Origin: Callorhinchus milii
Lineage: Eukaryota
Assembly (NCBI RefSeq): GCF_018977255.1
Contig: NW_024704743.1
Span: 15,254,001-15,318,000, forward strand
Direction: 5' to 3'
Length of the DNA: 64,000 bases
Shown here: positions 14,005 to 53,034 of the stretch, piece by piece
Numbering within the stretch: position 1 is the first letter of the stretch
How the letters are laid out: each line of letters opens with the position of its first letter
Program-made: the position numbers and the translations under genes
The notes under the pieces: generated by a model
The model's input: the letters and a program-made list of their open reading frames with translations, nothing else
The model's database searches: none
What the model was told of the DNA's origin: nothing

Positions 14005-14244
14005 TTCAAATGATTATAGCTGCTGCTGATTAATCTCCTTTCAGCTCCTCTAGCTCGCCCTGAAATAGTTTTAACACCCCACTCTCCCGTGCAGCTTCCA
14101 GATCGCTTGCTCTTCTGTTCTTTCAGAGATAAAACAAACTAATGCCAAGGAAGAAAAGCGTCTATTAAAACTAATGCACTAGTTTTGATGGAGCACCGGC
14201 ACACTTGTTCAGATAGCTCCCCTGTTATTATGTTTCTTTGTTTC

Positions 14245-15980
14245 CCCACCCTCTGTCACCAAACTCATCCTATCCCTAAAACCAACCACCTGCTCCCTTG
14301 ACCCCATCCCCACTCCACTCCTTATCTCCCAGCTCCACTTTCTTGCCCCACATATCACCGACATCATCAACCTCTCCCTCTCCTCTGGCTCTGTCCCCAT
14401 TCCCTTAAAAACTGCCACCATCACGCCCACCCTGAAAAAACCCTCCCTTGATGCGTCGCAGCTATCAAGCTACCGGCCCATCTCCAACCTCCCCTTTCTC
14501 TCCAAGGTCCTGGAAAGAGTTGTCGCCTCCCAACTGCGCTCTTTCCTTTCCACCCATTCACTTTTCGAACCCCTTCAGTCAGGTTTCCGTGCTGCCCATA
14601 GCACAGAAACTGCCCTGGTCAAGGTCACCAATGATATCCTGACCATCTGTGACCAGGGCTCCCTCTGCCTCCTCGTCCTCCTCGACCTATCGGCAGCATT
14701 CGATACGGTCGACCACGCTATCCTACTCCACCGCTTGTCCTCCCACCTCAACCTTCAAGGCACTGTCCTTGAGTGGTTTAGGTCGTACCTTTCTCACCGT
14801 CTTCACTTTGTCTCGACGAATGGCTTCTCCTCCACCCCCCGTACTGTCTCATGTGGTGTCCCTCAGGGCTCTGTCCTCGGTCCCCTCCTCTTCACCCTCT
14901 ATATGCTCCCCCTGTGGTGACATCATCCGCAGACATGGAGTTAACTTCCACATGTATGCGGATGACACCCAACTCTACCTTTCCTCCTCTACTCTCAACT
15001 CCACGACCACCGATGTCCGACATCGAGTCCTGGACGAGAGACAACTTTCTTCAGCTCAACGTGCGAAAAACCGAGGCCCTCCTGATTGGCTCACGTCAGC
15101 GCCTCCGCACCTCAGGCGCTGACACCATCAGCATCCAAGGCTGCACTCTCCACCTCTCAAAGCCAGTCAGGAACCTCGGCGTTTTGTTCGACCCTGAGCT
15201 GTCCTTTCTCCCTCACATCCGCACCACAACTGGCACCGCCTTCCATCACCTCCGGAACATCGCCAGACTACGGCACTACCTCACCCCTCACGCTGCTGAA
15301 ACCCTGGTCCACGCCTTTGTCACCTCAAGGCTGGACTATGGGAACTCTCTCCTCGCCGGCCTTCCCGCCACCTCCCTCCACAAGCTGCAGGTCATTCAGA
15401 ACTCTGCAGCTCGTGTACTGTCCCGCACCAGGCTTCGCGACCACATCACTCCCACCCTCGCTCGCCTCCACTGGCTCCCCATCCCCCAGAGGATTGATTT
15501 CAAGATCCTCATCCTCACCTACAAGGCCATTCACGGCCTTGCTCCCTCCTACCTCTCCGACCTACTATCCCCCTACCTACCTGCCCGTACCCTCCGTTCC
15601 TCCGGCTCCGGTCTGCTCCACGTCCCCCGCCCCAACCGCCCTACCATCGGTGGTCGGGCCTTCAGCCTCTCAGGCCCCCGGCTCTGGAACTCCATCCCCC
15701 AGTGCCTTCGCCGCCTCCTCCCTTTCCTCCTTCAAGGCCGGTCTCAAAACCTTTCTCTTTGACCGAGCCTTCAGCTCCCCTCTCGACTCTCTTCCCCCTC
15801 CTCGCTCCCTCCCTTCCCTCCCCTCACCATTTCCCCCCTCCTCGCTCCCTCCCTTCCCTCCCCTCAACCTGACCATTTCCCCCCTGCTCGGGTCATGACC
15901 CAACTGTGCAGCGCCTTGGGACGTCCTCCTGACGTGAAAGGCGCTTTATAAATGGAATCTTGTTGTTGTTGTTGTTGTTT
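14245..15980 (+). mobile_element. Young 5'-truncated L2-clade LINE with nearly intact RT domain and 3' tail
   Basis: [50 protein letters not shown] and LARLHWLP motifs with a few frameshifts; (TTG)n tail. Confidence 0.95.
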
Positions 15981-31427: not shown

Positions 31428-31731
31428 TATAATAATCCTTGCATTTGATATAGCGTTTTTCACATCTTCTAGACATCTTAAAGTGCTTCACAGAATAAAC
31501 TGTAAAGTGAATTGATTGTATATTTGTGGGCGTAACTCAGCAGCCATTTGCGCACAGCAGTGTCCCACAAACAGTCATGGATTGAAATGACCAATTTATT
31601 ATTGGTTTTTTGAGGGATTATTATCAGGCGTGTGGAGTAAGGAAACTTGCCCAAGGTTTCACCCTGCCGGGAATCGAACCCAGGTCTCTCACTGGCAAAG
31701 CGAGTGCTCTAACCACTGAGCTACAGGACTC
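31428..31731 (-). mobile_element. tRNA-derived SINE with intact Pol III boxes, inserted into a CR1 3' end (31400-31872)
   Basis: Minus-strand A box TAGCTCAGTGG and B box GGGTTCGATTCCC; (TTA)n tail; CR1 tail continues at 31735-31872. Confidence 0.88.
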
Positions 31732-33220: not shown

Positions 33221-34340
33221 TTTTTCAGGACACTATCTTGGGATTGTTACAATCCTTTGGTTTAACATCTCTGCTGAAGGATGGCACTTTTAATAATGCA
33301 GAGCTCCTCCAGCGCTGAATTGGAACATCAGCCTGGACTGTGAGCTCAAAATCAAAGCTTGGGGGGGGGGGTTGAACCCACATCTGTCTGACTCATAGTA
33401 ATAGTCAAGGCACTAGAGGTAAGTTTTTGTCTGACACAATGTTTTATTTTAAAACTGTAGTACTACAGCATACAATAAGAATGCACAGGTCCAGAAAAGA
33501 CCATTGGAGTCTATCCAACCTGTATTGTCATTAAAAAAAACAACATATAAAAAAACTTCACATATAAACAGAGATTAGAATTTAACTCTAAGATGGCCTC
33601 AACATCTGAGTATCAACAAAGCAGTATCTCCATCTCTATGTGTCTATCCATTTATTTTGGTTGTGCTGCGTGTTGATACTGATACTCTGCTTGTTGTTTG
33701 TAGTTTAATCAAACTGGCTTCAGGACTTTATTTTCTTGTTACACAAAGCAGTGTGTACAAATTGAGATCGGTCACGGTCACCACTTTGCTTCCTATGTTT
33801 AAAATATGTTCTGTAAAGTTCACTAAAAGCATTAGCCGGTGTGAGTGCCGTTACTAATCACCGATTGCGCTCTGGGAAACTTGGAAAAAGTCATGAAGTT
33901 CAGTAGAACTGGCGCTTGCGCATTATAAATATATTGAGTAGCCCTTCAAATACATATTTTTTAATGCATTCAAAGTTTTTGATACTTATGGTGCCAACAT
34001 GTCTGACTGTAGCATCTATTGCAACAATTTGGTGGGGCAACTGACTATCTACAATTTGCATAAGTGAAGGGGGAAGGTGTACTGTTTTCATATTAGGTCA
34101 CTTAAAAGATGATTTTGATTGGACCATTGGGTACCCTAATTTGGGGAGGGGCTCAATGTACATAAAAGAATAAGCACCATGTGCTTGTGGGGGTCACTAT
34201 TTTTCTTCTAGAAAACAGCAGGAGGTGTGTGCTTTGACTGTTGATGAGCAGTAGTCAGAGGTTGGTTCTTCGTGCACTTTACATTAACTTCATTACAAGG
34301 GGCTGCTAACGTGTGTAGTTTAAGTGTGATTAATGTTTGT

Positions 34341-34957: not shown

Positions 34958-37004
34958 GCTTTTTATCATTGCAGATAACCAAAACCATCTTAGAAATAAC
35001 ATCGCCATTTAAATCATTTTCCTTATTGTCCAGCAAACCTTGTTTATATTATTGATAATAATTTATACGCAATGGCACTGAGGAATGCTCGATTATCTCT
35101 TTAAAATGATTCCTTTTGATTTGCAAAAATAATTTTTAATAACAGGCCTGCAGGCCAACTAGAATAAGCAGTCAATTGTTTATATATTAAAAGAGGTTTC
35201 TTGCAATAAACTGAATTAGGATTGGGGGACTAAAATGTGGAACAGGAATACTTAACAGGAAATTTGAGGGTGCAAATGGCAACTTCCCTTTTTTTATGGA
35301 TAGCCGGGTGTCTGACACATGTGGAAACTCATCACCGTGGTTATCAAAGCCAAAATGACAGTTCCGTGCATTCAACCTACACGTGGAAATTCCTATTTAT
35401 TGGAATGGAATTTGTGCTCTCTCCCTGGAGGGATGTATCCTGTTTAACTAATTCCGGAAAGTACTAGGCACAGGTTGGTAAGAACCAAGACTTGGGGATC
35501 CTAGAGTGTGTATTGGAGTCTAACCAACTAAAACTATATAGCTTGCCATTGAGAGCATTGCCTCCCAAGCTTCCCTGCTGCTTGCCCGGCGAGGACCACC
35601 CTTGTATTTAAAGGTTTGGCTTACAGGGTTAATCAGAGCTGAGTGGGTGGATTTCCTGCCCCAGTGACAGCTGCCCCTTCATGTCCTACTTATAAACCAG
35701 TCTGGGATCAGCACTGCCAGTTCAGCTCCAAAGAGACCCTACTTACCCCCCACCAACCTCCCCTCCAAGGAGGACTTCCCTGATTAGAGGGAATTCTGTT
35801 CCAATGCAGTCTATGGCTGGAGGAGATTTCCCCCGAGTTATGGGGAATTTAAATGACATTGCTTATTGAAGAGTTCCAGAAATTGCATGATTTTAGCATT
35901 CCATCAGTGACTTTTTTACCCACAAAATATACAGTCAATTCACTCTACAGTATATTCTGTGAAGCGCTTTGAGACGTCTCAATCATGTGCTAAGGTGCCA
36001 TATCAAATGCAAGAATTATTATTTGCTAAGAAAAAAATTGCTACACACCGTTTCAATTAAAATCCTGCATCTTCAATGTTTTCATAAAAATAGCATTAGG
36101 CAAACAGTTAATGTCTGGACATTTTATTTTAAAAAGGCACATAATAAACTGATAATTGTAATGTAATGACAGGCACAGTGAGTTAGTTATTATTGTTTAG
36201 ATAGGCAACCGTGGATTCTCCACACACACAGCGCCCTCTGCTTTCTAGTACCCAGAAACCAGCTCCTTTGCAAATGCAAAATGCAATCCTGCAATAATCA
36301 GTCATATACGGTAATACTAAATAAATCAGGGGAAAACAACTATTAAAAACACCCAAAAGTAGAGGCAAGTCGTTTAATCCAACTCCAAGATGTGTGTACG
36401 TGATATACGATTTAAGAAAGTGAGTGAAACTCTGTATAAGATTGCCCCTCAGCAATCACACAGAAGCCATCGGAATTGTAATTCTGAAGTTGTTTGTACC
36501 AGATGTAAGTTTTGGACAGGTTGCTGAATGATTGATGTGTAGTGTGTGTCTATGTGTGAATGCCCTTATCTCCACTGGGTTTAGCTCTGACACTGACGTC
36601 AGATAAAGGTAATAAAGCAAGTGGTTCTCAGGTAACACCACCCACCGCTTCCTCTCTCTCAGGATATGTGTGATGTGCGTTTAAACCCAACTTTGTTTTG
36701 CTTTTTATCATTGCAGCGAGCTCTCGACTGAACACTCCGGACCGCACCACAAAATGTTGTTCTGGCACTCCCAACCCGAGCAGTACCATCAGTACCCAAG
36801 CAGTAACAGTTACCTCCGGTAAGCCATTCTGCCTGCCTTCACTTTACATTGCTTTGCCCTTTGCTCACCTCTCTCTGGGGGTGCAACTGAACACAACCAG
36901 CTCCAGCCTCTGTACACATGGCTTCTGCTCATCATCAGGCACTTTAAGTACTCTTTGATGTCTGCTACCAAAACCCATGCAGAATATTGCAGGTTAATAA
37001 TGGA

Positions 37005-38449: not shown

Positions 38450-38640
38450 TAACAACAACAATTTGCACTTGTGTAACGCCCTCCACGCAAGGGTAGCGCC
38501 TCAGAGCGCCTCACAGTGGCGGAGCTTGACTCCGAGCCGGGGTGGGTGGCGGGGGAGGAGAGATGGCCGGAAGCACGGCCGAAGAGGGAGGTTTTCAGGC
38601 GGGACTTGAAAAAGGGCAGAGAGGGGGCCGCGCAGTGAGA
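38450..38640 (-). mobile_element. L2 3' tail abutting the upstream minisatellite
   Basis: aacaacaacaatttgcacttgtgtaacgccctccacgc...; same tail as 45315-45466 in the opposite orientation. Confidence 0.8.
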
Positions 38641-38666
38641 GTGTGGAGGAGTACATTAGCAGCAGG

Positions 38667-41600
38667 TGTAGCCCCCCCAGCCCCTCTCACCTCACACTGT
38701 AGCCCCCTCTCACCTCACACTGTAGCCCCCTCTCACCTCACACTGTAGCCCCCCCTCTCACCTCACACTGTAGCCCCCTCTCACCTCACACTGTAGCCCC
38801 CTCTCACCTCACACTGTAACTCCCCTCTCTCTCACCTCATACTGTAGCCCCACCTCTCTCACCTCACACTGTAGCCCCCCTCACCTCACACTGTAGCCCC
38901 CTCTCACCTCACACTGTAGCCCCCCTCACCTCACACTGTAGCCCCCCCACCTCACACTGTAGCCCCCCCTCACCTCACACTGTAGCCCCCTCTCACCTCA
39001 CACTGTAGCCCCCTCTCACCTCACACTGTAGCCCCCTCTCACCTCACACTGTAGCCCCTCTCACCTCACACTGTAGCCCCCTCTCACCTCACACTGTAGC
39101 CCCCTCTCACCTCACACTGTAGCCCCCCTCACTCACACTGTAGCCCCCCTCTCACCTCACACTGTAGTGCCCCCTCTCACCTCACTGTAGCCCCCTCTCA
39201 CCTCACACTGTAGCCCCCCTCACCTCACACTGTAGCCCCCTCTCACCTCACACTGTAGCCCCCTCTCACCTCACACTGTAGCCCCCCTCTCACCTCACAC
39301 TGTAGTCCCCCCTCTCACCTCACACTGTAGTCCCCCCTCTCACCTCACACTGTAGCCCCCCCTCTCACCTCACACTGTAGCCCCCCCTCTCACCTCACAC
39401 TGTAGCCCCCTCTCACCTCACACTGTAGCCCCCTCTCACCTCACACTGTAGCCCCCTCTCACCTCACACTGTAGCCCCCTCTCACCTCACACTGTAGCCC
39501 CCTCTCACCTCACACTGTAGTCCCCCCTCTCACCTCACACTGTAGTCCCCCCTCTCACCTCACACTGTAGCCCCCCCTCTCACCTCACACTGTAGCCCCC
39601 ACCCCTCTCACCTCACACTGTAGCCCCCCACCCCTCTCACCTCACGCTGTAGCCCCCCACCCCTCACCTCACACTGTAGTCCCCCTCTCACCTCACACTG
39701 TAGTCCCCCCCTCTCTCACCTCACACTGTAGTCCCCCCTCTCACCTCACACTGTAGCCCCCCCTCACCTCATACTGTAGCCCCCCCACCCCTTTCACCTC
39801 ACACTGTAGCCCCCCCCACCCCTCTCACCTCACACTGTAGCCACCCACCCCTCTCACCTCACACTGTAGCCCCTCTCACCTCACACTGTAGCCCCTCTCA
39901 CCTCACACTGTAGCCCCCCCCCTCTCACCTCACACTGTAGCCCCCCCCTCTCACCTCACACTGTAGCCCCCCCACCCCTCTCACCTCACACTGTAGCCCC
40001 CCACCCCTCTCACCTCACACTGTAGCCCCCCACCCCTCACACTGTAGCCCCTCTCACCTCACACTGTAGCCCCCCCACCCTCTCACCTCACACTGTAGCC
40101 CCCCCACCCCACTCACCTCACACTGTAGCCCCCCACCCCTCTCACCTCACACTGTAGCCCCCCCACCCCTCTCACCTCACACTGTAGCCCCCCCACCCTC
40201 TCACCTCACACTGTAGCCCCTCTCACCTCACACTGTAGCCCCCCCCACCCCTCTCACCTCACACTGTAGCCCCCCACCCCTCTCACCTCACACTGTAGCC
40301 CCCCCACCCCTCTCACCTCACACTGTAGCCCCCCACCCCTCTCACCTCACACTGTAGCCCCCCCACCCCTCTCACCTCACACTGTAGCCCCCCCCACCCC
40401 TTCACCTCACACTGTAGCCCACCCCACCTCACACTGTAGCCCCCCCCTCACACTGTAGCCCCCCACCTCACACTGTAGCCCCCACCCCTCTCACCTCACA
40501 CTGTAGCCCCCCCACCCCTATCACCTCACACTGTAGCCCCCCCACCCCTCACACTGTAGCCCCCCCCACCCCTCACACTGTAGCCCCCCCACCCTCACAC
40601 TGTAGCCCCCCACCCCTCTCACCTCACACTGTAGCCCCCCCACCCTCACACTGTAGCCCCCCACCCCTGTCACCTCACACTGTAGCCCCCCCCACCCCTC
40701 TCACCTCACACTGTAGCCCCTCTCACCTCACACTGTAGCCCCCCCACCCCTCTCACCTCACACTGTAGCCCCCCCACCCTCTCACCTCACACTGTAGCCC
40801 CCCCACCCCTCTCACCTCACACTGTAGCCCACCCACCCTCTCACCTCACACTGTAGCCCCCCCACCCCTCTCACCTCACACTGTAGCCCCCCCACCCCTC
40901 TCACCTCACACTGTAGCCCCCCACCCTCTCACCTCACACTGTAGCCCCTCTCACCTCACACTGTAGCCCCCCACCCCTCTCACCTCACACTGTAGCCCCC
41001 CCACCCCTCTCACCTCACACTGTAGCCCCCCACCCTCTCACCTCACACTGTAGCCCCCCCACCCCTCTCACCTCACACTGTAGCCCACCCCACCCCTCAC
41101 ACTGTAGCCCCCCCACCCCTCACACTGTAGCCCCCCACCCCTCTCACCTCACACTGTAGCCCCCATCCCTCACACTGTAGCCCCCACCCCTCACACTGTA
41201 GCCCCCCACCCCTCTCACCTCACACTGTAGCCCCCCCACCCTCACACTGTAGCCCCCCCACCCCTCACACTGTAGCCCCCCCACCCTCACACTGTAGCCC
41301 CCCCCACCCTCTCACCTCACACTGTAGCCCCTCTCACCTCACACTGTAGCCCCCCCACCCCTCTCACCTCACACTGTAGCCCCCTCACCTCACACTGTAG
41401 CCCCCACACCTCACACTGTAGCCCCCCCACCCCTCACCTCACACTGTAGCCCCCCACCTCACACTGTAGCCCCCCCACACCTCACACTGTAGCCCCCCAC
41501 CCCTCTCACCTCACACTGTAGCCCCTCACCTCACACTGTAGCCCCCTCTCACCTCACACTGTAGCCCCCTCACCTCACACTGTAGCCCCCCCTCACCTCA

Positions 41601-42792
41601 CACTGTAGCCCCCCCTCACCTCACACTGTAGCCCCTCTCACCTCACACTGTAGCCCCCTCTCACCTCACACTGTAGCCCCTCTCACCTCACACTGTAGCC
41701 CCCTCTCACCTCACACTGTAGCCCCCTCTCACCTCACACTGTAGCCCCCTCTCACCTCACACTGTAGCCCCCCCTCACCTCACACTGTAGTCCCCCCTCT
41801 CACCTCACACTGTAGTGCCCCCTCTCACCTCACTGTAGCCCCCTCTCACCTCACACTGTAGCCCCCTCTCACCTCACACTGTAGCCCCCTCTCACCTCAC
41901 ACTGTAGCCCCCTCTCACCTCACACTGTAGCCCCCCCCCCTCTCACCTCACACTGTAGCCCCCTCTCACCTCACACTGTAGCCCCCTCTCACCTCACACT
42001 GTAGCCCCCCTCTCACCTCACACTGTAGCCCCCCTCTCACCTCACACTGTAGCCCCTCTCACCTCACACTGTAGCCCCCCTCACCTCACACTGTAGCCCC
42101 CTCTCACCTCACACTGTAGCCCCCTCTCACCTCACACTGTAGCCCCTCTCACCTCACACTGTAGCCCCCTCTCACCTCACACTGTAGTCCCCCCTCTCAC
42201 CTCACACTGTAGTCCCCCCTCTCACCTCACACTGTAGCCCCCCCCTCTCACCTCACACTGTAGCCCCCCACCCTCTCACCTCACGCTGTAGCCCCCCCAC
42301 CCCCTCACCTCACGCTGCAGCCCCCACCCCTCTCACCTCACACTGTAGTCCCCCCTCTCACCTCACACTGTAGTCCCCCCCTCTCACCTCACACTGTAGT
42401 CCCCCCCTCTCACCTCACACTGTAGTCCCCCTCTCACCTCACACTGTAGCCCCCACCCTCACCTCACACTGTAGCCCCCCACCCCTCTCACCTCACACTG
42501 TAGCCCCACCCACCCTCTCACCTCACACTGTAAGCCCCTCTCACCTCACACTGTAGCCCTCTCACCTCACACTGTAGCCCCCCCCCCTCTCACCTCACAC
42601 TGTAGCCCCCCCCCTCTCACCTCACACTGTAGCCCCCCACCCCTCTCACCTCACACTGTAGCCCCCCCCACCCCTCTCACCTCACACTGTAGCCCCCCCA
42701 CCTCACACTGTAGCCCTCTCACCTCACACTGTAGCCCCCCCACCCCTCTCACACTCACACTGTAGCCCCCCCACCCCACTCACCTCACACTG
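38667..42792 (-). repeat. ~4.1 kb minisatellite, + strand unit (C)n-TCTCACCTCACACTGTAG, ~22-28 bp, roughly 160-170 units
   Basis: Directly visible tandem array; reverse complement is GGGGGCTACAGTGTGAGGTGAGA; copy number estimated from length. Confidence 0.98.
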
Positions 42793-43383
42793 GGCTGTAA
42801 CTCACCCAGGAGGGCGGGCTCTGATTGGCTGTAACTCACCCAGGAGGGCGGGCTCTGATTGACTGAACGAGGCAGTCACTCAGCAGGGAGGGCAGATTCT
42901 GCGTGATGATTGGCTAAAGCTATGTGTCACTCAGCCCCGGGGAGGGCGTGCTCCGGACTCAGATTGGTTGGTCCAAGCTATCAAGTCAGCGGGACCGGGA
43001 CGGCTGCTGTGCGCAGGCGCGGTTTTGGGGTCGGCGGCTGGGTGGAGGGTGACGAGCGGCCATGTTTGTGCCGGAGTCGGTGTGGGATCGGGAAGGGAAC
43101 GGAGGAGGCGGCGACGACGACAGCAACCGCAGCTCCGGGGGCGCGGGCAGCGCGTGAGGCGAGAGCCGGGAGTGGGGGCGTGGAGCCGCGTCTGTGGGCG
43201 GCGCTGGGATCAGCCGCCAGTGCGTGTCTGTCAGCCCGTCCGTGTGTGTGTGTGTGTCTGTGCGGCACCATGGCCCAGTGAGCGGGGCCCGGCCCCGGGC
43301 CTGTCACAGCACCGCCCTCCACACACACACACACACACACACAGCCCGGGCCGGGGCCGGGGCCGGGCTCGGCCTCCCTCACC
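42793..43383 (+). promoter_or_regulatory. UBP1: UBP1 CpG-island promoter and 5' leader with GC boxes and inverted CCAAT boxes
   Basis: Most CpG-dense non-repeat segment in the window; GGGCGG at 42812 and 42846; ATTGG at 42824, 42909 and 42963; directly upstream of the ATG at 43384. Confidence 0.85.
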
Positions 43384-43496
43384 ATGGCCTGGGTGCTGAA
43401 GATGGACGACGCCATCGAGTCCGGCCTCGTGCACGACTTCGACGCCAGTTTGTCCGGAATCGGCCAAGAGCTGGGGGCCGGGGCCTACAGTATGAG
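43384..43496 (+). CDS. UBP1: UBP1 (upstream binding protein 1 / LBP-1, CP2/Grainyhead family) coding exon 1
   Basis: Kozak accATGg; [37 protein letters not shown](S); the MAWVLKMD start distinguishes UBP1 from TFCP2 (MAWALKLPLAD); donor AG|gtgaga. Confidence 0.96.
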
Positions 43497-45200
43497 GTGA
43501 GAGAGAGGGGGGCTACAGTATGAGGTGAGAGAGGGGGGGGCTACTGTATGAGGTGAGAGAGAGAGGGGCTACAGTATGAGGTGAGAGGGGAGTTACTGTA
43601 TGAGGTGAGAGGGGGGGGGCTACAGTATGAGGTGAGAGAGAGAGGGGTCTACAGTATGAGGTGAGAGGGGGCTACTGTATGAGGTGAGAGGGGGGCTACT
43701 GTATGAGGTGAGAGGGGCTACTTATGAGGTGAGAGGGGGCTACTGTATGAGGTGAGAGAGAGAGGGGTCTACGGTATGAGGTGAGAGGGGCTACGGTATG
43801 AGGTGAGAGGGGGCTACTGTATGAGGTGAGAGGGGGGTAGGTGAGGTGAGAGGGGGCTACTGTATGAGGTGAGAGGGGGTTACTGTATGAGGTGAGAGGG
43901 GGGCTACTGTATGAGGTGAGAGGGGGCTACTGTATGAGGTGAGAGGGGGCTACTGTATGAGGTGAGAGGGGGCTACTGTATGAGGTGAGAGGGGGTTACT
44001 GTATGAGGTGAGAGGGGGTTACTGTATGAGGTGAGAGGGGGTTACTGTATGAGGTGAGAGGGGGGCTACTGTATGAGGTGAGAGGGGGGCTACTGTATGA
44101 GGTGAGAGGGGGGCTACTGTATGAGGTGAGAGGGGGCTACTGTATGAGGTGAGAGGGGGTTACTGTATGAGGTGAGAGGGGGTTACTGTATGAGGTGAGA
44201 GGGGGTTACTGTATGAGGTGAGAGGGGGCTACTGTATGAGGTGAGAGGGGGGCTACTGTATGAGGTGAGAGGGGGGGCTACAGTATGAGGTGAGAGGGGG
44301 GCTACTGTATGAGGTGAGAGGGGGGCTACTGTATGAGGTGAGAGGGGGCTACTGTATGAGGTGAGAGGGGGCTACTGTATGAGGTGAGAGAGGGGATTAT
44401 AGTATGAGGTGAGAGGAGGACTGCAGTATGAGGTGTGGGAGGGGCTACAGTATGAGGTGAGAGAGGGGTGGGGGCTACAGTATGAGGTGAGAGTGAGGGG
44501 GGCTACAGTATGAGGTGAGAGGGGGGCTGCAGTATGAGGTGAGAGAGGGGTGGGGGCTACAGTATGAGGTGAGAGTGAGGGGGGCTACAGTATGAGGTGA
44601 GAGGGGGCCGCAGTATGAGGTGTGGGGGGGCTACAGTATGAGGTAAGAGGGGGGGGCTACAGTATGAGGTGAGAGGGGGGGGCTACAGTATGAGGTGAGA
44701 GAGGGGCTACAGTATGAGGTGAGAGAGGGGCTATAGTATGAGGTGAGATGGGGCTGCAGTATGAGGTGAGAGAGGGGGGGCTGCAATATGAGGTGTGGGG
44801 GGGGGCTACAGTATGAGGTGAGAGGGGGGGGGCTACAGTATGAGGTGAGAGAGGGGCTATAGTATGAGGTGAGAGGGGGCTGCAGTATGAGGTGAGAGAG
44901 GGGGGGCTGCAATATGAGGTGTGGGGGGGGGCTACAGTATGAGGTGAGAGAGATGGGGGCTACAGTATGAGGTGAGAGAGAGTGGGCTACAGTATGAGGT
45001 GAGAGAGGGGTGGGGGGGGCTACAGTATGAGGTGAGAGAGAGGGGGGGCTACAGTATGAGGTGCGAGAGAGGTGGGGCTACAATATGAAGTGAGAGTGGG
45101 GGGCTACAATGTTAGAATGAGAGAGGGAGGGGGCTACAGTATGAGGTAAGAAGTGGAGGTGACTACAATATTAGGTGAGAGTGGGGTCTATAGTATGAGT
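43480..45200 (+). repeat. ~1.7 kb minisatellite, unit (G)n-CTAC(A/T)GTATGAGGTGAGA, roughly 70 units; degenerate units resume at ~45520-45700
   Basis: Directly visible tandem array whose first unit is the UBP1 exon 1/intron 1 junction. Confidence 0.98.
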
Positions 45201-45219
45201 TCAGAGAGGGGGCCTTACA

Positions 45220-45520
45220 GTAATAGTAATAATCCTTGCATTTGATATAATGCGTTATCAAGTCTTGAGCTGTCTCCAGGTTCTTCAAAGGTTATACTGT
45301 AAAGTGTGGTGAAAATTTTCCTCTTCAACCGTGCTTATAGCCAACTCTCCCTCCTCCCCCCCCCACCCACCCCGGCACAGAATCAGGCTCCGCACTGTTA
45401 AGCGCTCTGAGACGCTACCCTGCGTGGGGCGGAGGGGGGCGCTACATAAGTGCAAGTTGTTGTTGTAGAGACTTTTGTGGGCAAAACACGGCAGCTAATT
45501 GCACACAGCAGTGTCCCACA
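45220..45520. mobile_element. SINE tail (-) with a nested L2 tail (+, 45315-45466), interrupting the intron-1 minisatellite
   Basis: Recognisable SINE and L2 tails; degenerate minisatellite units resume at ~45520. Confidence 0.75.
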
Positions 45521-46189
45521 GTATGAGGTTAGAGAGAGTGGGGGGACTACAGTTTGGGGTGTGAGAGCGGGGAGGGCAACAGTATGAGGTATCTAAGAGA
45601 GAGATGGGGGGGAGGGGCTATAGTATGAGGTGAGAGAGATTGTGAGGGTGCCTACAACATGAGGGGAGAGAGAGAGTGGGGGGGGGGGGGCTACAGTAAT
45701 GATAGAGAGATGGGGAGAGAGGGGGGAAAGGGTTCAGAGTGGGGGGAAGGGCAGTGGGGGAAGTGGAGTGAATGAGTGAGGGGCAGAGGTAGAAGGAAAA
45801 TGAGAAGTTGTTTACAGTAGAAAGCAGAAAACATGTTTTTGAATACAGAATGAGGCCTTTTAGCCTATTATGTTTGTATAACTGACAGCTTTTTTGTCAC
45901 TTTAAAAATTAATTGGCTCTTCTCCCTGTATTCCTAAATTATTTAGTACCTAGGTGATTATCCAGTTCCCTTTTAGGATTCAAGGTCAGTACTGTTTGTT
46001 TCTCTGTCTGCGCTTGCCACAGCTGTCATTGGCATACAAACAATTTGCAGAGTCATCCACACAGACTTAGTCTCAATTCCTGGTGTCAGACACTAATCTA
46101 CGTTGGTACCACCTAGATCAGAAAATCTTATTTTATTTAAAAAAAGTTATTGACAAACCCCTTCTCCCAACAACTTTTAGTGACTATAT

Positions 46190-51061: not shown

Positions 51062-51213
51062 TGATGTCTTAGCCCTACCCATTTTCAAGCAAGAAGACTC
51101 GAGCCTTCCATCAGAGAATGAGACAAAACATCCACCATATCAGTATGTGCTCTGTACAGCCACATCTCCTGCAGTGAAACTGCACGATGAAACCCTCACA
51201 TACTTGAACCAAG
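51062..51213 (+). CDS. UBP1: UBP1 coding exon 2
   Basis: ttttgcag|T and G|gtatgt; [50 protein letters not shown]. Confidence 0.96.
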
Positions 51214-52210: not shown

Positions 52211-53034
52211 GTGATCCTTTATCCTGTTGGAAGCTGAATAGGAAAAGATGTGGAGTCTTGAAGGATTTGTAAATATGAGTTCTGCCTGGAAGGAATGAAG
52301 TTGTTAAAAAGTGATCTGTGTCAGCGACAGTCTTGTCGATCACCAGATAATACAACAATAATTTGGGCTTATATAGCGAACTCCACCCAGGGTAGTGTCT
52401 CAGAGCGCTTAACAGTGGCGGAGCCTGACTTTGAGCCGGGGTGGGGGGAGGTGACCATAAGTACGGTTGAAAAGGAAGGTTTTCAGGTGGGACTTGAAAA
52501 GGGGGAGGGAAGGCTTCCTAGTTTCCTGATAGTCTGCTTTGGGGATGTGAAGGGAATGATGTGCTGTCAGAAAAGTGCTATTGCTTACCTCCTTGCCTCA
52601 GGATAGTTGTGAAAGTTGAGTCTTGCTTTCAGGCAGTGAGCTTCATCTATAGAGAGCCTTGGGAGATCCTCCAGACATGAAAGGCACTATAATTTGTTTA
52701 TATTGTTGTTCATCTTAGAAGTTTGGAAGTCTTGAACCCCTCCCTTTTTTAAAAACAAACAAACTGGGAGTTGCATTCTCTCTGTGAAAGAATCTGAAAG
52801 TATGCTTGTTCAGGTCCTCAAATGATAAGATGGGATGTTTCAATGCTTCATCTGTAAAGGGGGAAGGGCAAATGAAGGTTAGCTAACAGAGCCAATGCTC
52901 TTAAGTTTTGTGAGCTGCTTCGCACCTTTACAGATTATATTGAAAAGTACTGGTAATAATAATCTTTGCATTTGATAATCTGTCTTTCACGACAGGAGGC
53001 CATCTCAAAATGCTTCACAGGATGAAATAATAAT

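Follow-up and report, generated by a model that had tools for sequence, protein, structure and literature searches.

UBP1 first exons and their surroundings

The window, by which we mean the whole 64-kb stretch of Callorhinchus milii DNA analysed here, contains the 5' part of the UBP1 gene. Exon 2 (51062-51213, plus strand) is 100% identical to C. milii UBP1, and its acceptor at 51062, which had been placed there in an earlier note made from the sequence, was confirmed by RNA contigs and is common to both first-exon forms of the gene. Exon 1b (43004-43496, plus strand), in which the RNA contigs start between 43004 and 43050, carries coding sequence from 43384 (MAWVLK...GAYSM-S) and ends in the authentic donor GAG|GTGAGA (43494-43502, plus strand). 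The cut falls after 43496, where the contigs of all three RNA-type runs continue with the letters of exon 2. Read-through from the ATG at 43384 ends in ...GAYSMR-stop, and translation bore out the previously described 38-residue frame with its stop at 43498-43500.

Exon 1b had been presented as the sole first exon of UBP1, a view contradicted by further UBP1 exons upstream at 34244-34260 and 36717-36818 (both on the plus strand). The former is the coding end (MSSSQ) of the most upstream exon of the annotated isoform X3 and is followed by a weak donor, GAG|GTTGGT. The latter, exon A, is an upstream alternative exon encoding the N-terminus MLFWH...SYLR, with a donor CG|GTAAGC in the same phase as that of exon 1b. 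Joined to exon 2, these two segments encode a sequence that matches C. milii isoform X3 (P0003) exactly over its first 91 residues. MLFW-type N-termini are present in 21 of the 120 best UBP1 hits, including coelacanth, teleosts and birds (22 were counted by pattern before the doubtful row P0027 was dropped), and other starts were found in 34 hits. Judged by these protein matches, exon A is a conserved upstream alternative first exon of UBP1, and it may also be usable as a first exon itself, from the ATG of MLFWH. The sequence just 5' of exon A (36560-36700, plus strand) is AT-rich in part and contains GATA-like words.

A 34-bp sequence that includes GC-box-like and CCAAT-like words is directly duplicated upstream of the exon 1b start (42793-42865) and is a putative promoter element. 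The region 42793-42980 contains two near-perfect 34-base modules of this kind together with looser copies, again with GC-box-like and CCAAT-like words, and on the minus strand each module has one donor-like TGG|GTGAGT. The 5' UTR of exon 1b includes two upstream ATGs, both inside the RNA contigs, which open a 31-codon frame (43062-43157, plus strand) and a short M-A-Q-stop frame (43270-43281, plus strand). The ATG of the short frame has the same context as the main start, CACCATGGCC. This three-codon frame is enclosed by pairable (TG)n and (CA)n tracts (43225-43386, plus strand), whose hairpin is only marginally better than that of shuffled sequences (z -1.88; 10 of 200 shuffles fold as well).

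An Rfam search of the window gave a single match, a tRNA at 31659-31730, and nothing over the arrays described below; the matching sequence is tRNA-Ala(TGC)-like (minus strand, 53.8 bits) and may be either a tRNA gene or a repeat derived from one. Decayed RT-like LINE fragments are numerous on both strands (14189-15900 and many shorter stretches).

The donor array and its inverted sister

The end of exon 1b lies within a minisatellite (43480-45212, plus strand) of about 68 units of 20-33 bases, in which the unit consists of the last 12-17 bases of the exon and the first bases of the intron. Tandem Repeats Finder (TRF) returned the same limits with a period of 23 and 68.1 copies, in agreement with the roughly 70-fold intron 1 array described previously, and 67-68 unit cores were detected at 2-3 mismatches. 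There are 65 donor-like TGAG|GT sites including the real one, of which 58 read GAG|GTGAGA, four GTGTGG, two GTAAGA and one GTGCGA. The claim that each unit carries an intact GAG|GTGAGA site is therefore correct for 58 sites, with seven of the 65 departing from it. The coding bases for Y-S-M-S, said to be present in every unit, are altered in 28 of 65 units, which carry TACTGT for TACAGT (Y-C for Y-S); the exact exon 1b end, CTACAGTATGAG, is found in 23 of 65. At the thirteenth base upstream of the cut, exon 1b has C, whereas the array units mostly have G and some have T. An ATG-AG precedes 64 of the 65 donor sites and after splicing is in frame with exon 2 (M-S-D-V-L), and the array contains 57 ATG-AGG-TGA mini-frames. 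The centre of the array is homogeneous and young, and its far end is decayed. A LINE 3' tail follows (45310-45470, plus strand), beyond which lie four more decayed units (45514-45670, plus strand).

A second, larger array of the same kind lies in inverted orientation just upstream of the exon 1b promoter (38681-42792, minus strand). It is made up of about 161-164 units of the form GCTACAGTGTGAG|GTGAGAG(G)n and has 149 donor-like sites antisense to UBP1. Its unit is the donor-array unit reversed with one substitution, ATG to GTG: 139 of the 149 sites have the GTG core and two (near 39797 and 38862) the ancestral ATG, and the two arrays have sub-variants in common. About 700 bases separate the start of the sister array from the real donor, and this start lies within a promoter module that has a similar TACAG word. 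At its distal end it abuts another LINE 3' tail (38452-38670, minus strand), relative to which the tail at 45310 is inverted, with a CTACAC microhomology at the joint that is suggestive only. Both tails are L2-like, and we take them to be L2 from sequence features (RT-like ORF fragments) rather than from a repeat library. Co-duplication of the flanking tails with the array was considered but is not supported, as they are 77% alike, no closer than an unrelated copy at 52451 (78%) or other copies in the window. Read on the sense strand (38681-42792, plus strand), the sister units are pyrimidine-rich and end in an acceptor-like TAG|C.

Two blocks of the sister array, at 38880-39690 and 41490-42340, can be recognised by rare variants of the unit, which lie at 39171 and 41819. 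This block duplication, with a spacing of 2.65 kb, is identical at 823 of 828 aligned bases, compared with 786 of 797 and more than twice as many gaps for the best control. It could be a real higher-order repeat or an assembly duplication.

The protein end encoded at the junction is conserved. YSMS stands directly before DVLALP in 64 of the 120 best UBP1 hits, and 52 of these read GAGAYSMS, which upholds the conservation that the earlier note had stated for this motif in UBP1. In another vertebrate, one UBP1-like and one TFCP2-like locus, the second of which we take to be TFCP2, have the donor at the same position, once each. No array was found in 405 and 2750 intron bases of these two loci or in 709 and 3026 bases upstream; both came from one metagenome scan, bear labels taken from their N-termini, and neither is a chimaera orthologue. 

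The chance of finding an in-register Y-S-M-AG|GT in a random word is about 2e-7 per register. The junction 18-mer, allowing up to four mismatches, has no match in the 64-kb window outside both arrays. Among nine UBP1 donors mapped in the window, the 43496 donor alone is followed by copies within 2 kb, 62 in number. For four of the other donors the junction word was placed one or two bases away from the true donor site, an offset without effect on this count. An index search, a weak test, returned no look-alike windows for either array. On this comparative evidence, the exon end is older than the donor array. Because the protein end is conserved, the donor is single-copy in the two other loci and a chance match has a probability of only about 2e-7, the sequences indicate that the donor array grew from the UBP1 exon 1b junction, so that the exon junction, already proposed as the seed, retains this role. 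The sister array appears to be derived from the donor array, because ATG is the conserved codon and GTG the change, and it probably arose by template switching at short homologies.

It is extremely unlikely that the unit is a genome-wide satellite matching the junction by chance or that the arrays are assembly artefacts. The presence of a second array with the unit nearby, a 2.65-kb-spaced block duplication that could be assembly-made, and a DNA-type run that covers just the proximal 33 bases of the sister array and none of 43489-43558 would be in keeping with such an origin, but the match to conserved coding sequence is in register, the unit has no copies elsewhere in the window and no look-alikes in the (weak) index search, and the arrays show unit variants in ordered blocks as well as decayed edges, as real minisatellites do. 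The array lengths given here are taken from the assembly alone.

Donor choice and the predicted duplex

For the analysis of splicing, four of the 20 listed runs were aligned to 42760-43558, namely X1-X3 (contigs from one study, classed as RNA by guess) and X15 (DNA-type); X4-X6, X16-X18 and ten runs whose word share did not exceed 0.04 were left out. X1, X2 and X3 have one contig each, which runs from 43004-43050 to 43496 and continues in exon 2 from 51062. None of the contigs in these three runs extends over 43516-43558 (donors 2-3), and none lies upstream of 43004, where absent cover proves nothing. The aligned stretch includes donors 1-3 of the 65, and contigs drop rare or NMD-degraded forms. 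The same junction of exon 1b to exon 2 at the 43496 donor is present in four C. milii protein entries (P0002, P0004-P0006). X15 covers the proximal 33 bases of the sister array and has no contig over 43489-43558. A divergent spliced transcript from the minus-strand donors at 42784, 42806 and 42840 was also considered and set aside, with no RNA contig upstream of 43004 in the three runs.

According to the earlier note, the array copies may be poison donors or U1 sinks whose number could tune UBP1 output, a model that we now regard as quite improbable. The 58 of 65 sites identical to the real donor are in its favour, and splicing from any array donor would leave the stop at 43498-43500 in place. 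The 38-residue product expected from downstream donors may be only part of the outcome, however, since the in-frame ATG-AG of the units could allow restart. Such an mRNA would carry a 38-residue upstream frame and could in principle yield, from a restart, UBP1 that lacks residues 1-36. The N-terminal part of UBP1 presumably holds an activation domain. When the junctions into 51062, whose mapping the earlier note had proposed, were examined at the contig level, 43496 was the only donor used in all three RNA-type contigs (one study), and no contig entered donors 2-3, so that a working bank of poison donors is not supported by these data. Donors 2-3 correspond to the two neighbouring donors that are also used in human 6-16 and CBS, whereas the identical downstream pseudo-sites of F7 are functional and yet do not compete, according to the available text of the source (PMC1557585). 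In ABCA7, VNTR length has been associated with aberrant splicing, in which use of donors within intron 18 leads to premature stops, although in an RNA cohort splicing could not be correlated with VNTR length (available text of PMC13747324). The RNA contigs speak against a major poison-donor role; NMD and contig assembly would mask array-donor transcripts, and minor use of array donors may be compatible with the contig data.

Both arrays lie between exon A (ending at 36818) and exon 2, and the annotated long pre-mRNA would hold both of them because exon A is upstream of both. Within this predicted transcript of the annotated upstream isoform, complementary arms flank exon 1b as an inverted repeat. 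In a fold of 41300-45230, 1314 of 1574 pairs connect the sister array to the main array and leave exon 1b as the loop; seven or more of the nine bases are paired in 53 of 65 donors, and the first unit of the sister array pairs with the real donor. The mean unpaired probability of the donor 9-mers decreases from 0.57 for 43004-44200 to 0.08 for 42100-44200, and that of the real donor from 0.62 to 0.11, in folds that take no account of G-quadruplexes, proteins or co-transcriptional timing. The real donor and most of its copies are thus predicted to be hidden by a duplex of about 1,300 pairs, in the long transcript only.

This duplex could be an isoform-specific antisense mask, with the sister array covering by base pairing the donor of exon 1b and the copies of that donor in the long pre-mRNA; we consider this unlikely. 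Exon A would then splice cleanly to exon 2, the short transcript would keep its donor free as it lacks the antisense arm, and the sister array would be kept for neutralising the donor array. The placement of both arrays between exon A and exon 2, the predominance of sister-to-main pairs (1314 of 1574), the largely paired state of 53 of 65 donors, and the predicted loss of accessibility (0.57 to 0.08 for all donors and 0.62 to 0.11 for the real one) are consistent with masking, as are the conservation of the upstream N-terminus (21 of 120 best UBP1 hits) and the association of inverted-repeat duplexes with exon skipping in primates, as far as the available text goes (PMC13019944). However, any inverted copy pairs automatically, and pairing is no evidence of function. 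The three contigs cross the exon 2 junction unbroken, and the long isoform is known here from annotation; the same two first exons occur in other vertebrates, and an array is absent from both of the loci compared. Moreover, the upstream-first selection known from F7 would let the exon A donor win unmasked, and the commonest substitutions of both arrays weaken the duplex and therefore argue against selection for pairing. It is unlikely that promoter choice sets donor availability through the sense and antisense arrays that have grown from the gene's own donor on either side of an internal promoter; in this reading, the antisense array would compensate for the sense array as a sequence-specific mask built from the very repeat it silences.

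A role at the DNA level, in which G-rich non-template strands flanking the exon 1b promoter would act via R-loops or G-quadruplexes on the state of that promoter and the splice signals would be incidental, is very unlikely. It would fit the GC skew of about -0.75 upstream and about +0.75 downstream and the mean G4Hunter-type scores of 1.18 and -1.42 (-0.11 for the rest of the intron), but no RNA contig upstream of 43004 and no divergent transcript were seen, and the skew could equally be a cause of repeat growth.

We favour a neutral explanation, which is probably correct: the exon 1b junction was copied about 65 times head to tail and about 160 times backwards, the first donor is used, and the arrays are neutral, with the hairpin as a side effect. 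A short duplication across the junction would have seeded slippage or unequal exchange, perhaps helped by the G-runs. An inverted copy of the donor array, probably made by template switching at short homologies, would then have grown independently into the sister array. By analogy with F7, the most upstream of the identical donors would win and the others would be silent spares. In the annotated upstream-promoter isoform, both arrays would be transcribed and are predicted to pair, hiding the exon 1b donors.

The A-to-T core change in 28 of 65 units and the far-end decay suggest free turnover of the arrays rather than constraint, and so does the fact that the fixed change of the sister array and the A-to-T change each break a duplex pair. 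The neutral explanation has known precedents with silent copies: the real donor alone is used in F7, lamin B2 and PDGF (PMC1557585), and splicing is reported as undisturbed in the amphioxus mirages of Adh3 and the globins BflGb6 and BflGb9 (PMC3087553), both according to the available text. Against neutrality stand the 58 of 65 donors that are intact, though youth alone explains that, and a tidy layout in which the predicted pairing partner of the real donor is the first unit of the sister array, about 700 bases away. The weak point of the neutral explanation is that its splicing evidence comes from three contigs of one study with a guessed RNA status.

Relation to known systems

The donor array resembles a group of human minisatellites comprising the F7 IVS7 37-bp VNTR, 6-16 (IFI6), CBS intron 13, lamin B2 and PDGF intron 4, whose first unit spans an exon-intron boundary (available text of PMC1557585). 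At UBP1, the first unit likewise lies over the real boundary, 58 of 65 donors are identical, the units are mostly 20-33 bases long, and donor 1 is used in all three RNA-type contigs (one study). As in the F7 group, identical donors are repeated into the intron and the most upstream one is used. In contrast to that group, UBP1 has 65 donors rather than 5-26, the affected exon is a first exon rather than an internal one, and each unit has an ATG in frame with the next exon. An inverted sister array is present at UBP1, whereas none is mentioned in the available text on the human loci (PMC1557585). The unusually long UBP1 minisatellite offers a ready-made test of how the spliceosome chooses among 65 near-identical donors in a first exon.

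Exon-intron boundaries duplicated in tandem are also known from amphioxus, as mirages that recur at several genes of one genome (available text of PMC3087553); at UBP1 the unit is shorter, the copies are far more numerous, a mirrored copy lies upstream, and the host is a vertebrate. The ABCA7 VNTR, which exemplifies the model of the earlier note, similarly has a unit of about 25 bases beside a donor, but differs in that intronic donor use and length variation are reported for it (available text of PMC13747324). Limited searches revealed no precedent for a mirrored donor array, and limited searches likewise found no literature linking a C. milii minisatellite with intron splicing. The available parts of three further papers (PMC10078293, PMC6213935, PMC12768278) contain nothing on donor-bearing units, the N-terminal domain or UBP1 first-exon isoforms.

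The closest parallel for the paired arrays is provided by inverted Alu elements, whose duplexes have been linked to exon skipping and which likewise flank an exon with complementary arms within a single pre-mRNA and are predicted to loop it out (available text of PMC13019944). Unlike these pairs, the UBP1 arms are locus-born tandem copies of the gene's own donor rather than dispersed transposable-element copies, their predicted pairing involves the splice site itself, what they enclose is an alternative first exon, and the duplex is known from folding prediction only. The mirrored array therefore represents a natural experiment in which the donors are free in one transcript and predicted to be buried in the other. 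If the duplex matters, an antisense splice mask specific to one isoform would have been made by repeat growth and one inversion. Otherwise, the locus still shows that a gene's own sequence can give rise to kilobase-scale intronic duplexes in a fish genome with no pair of transposons involved. Thus, the donor array is a member of the known class of boundary-spanning donor minisatellites, and the mirrored antisense array inside the longer isoform is its new part.
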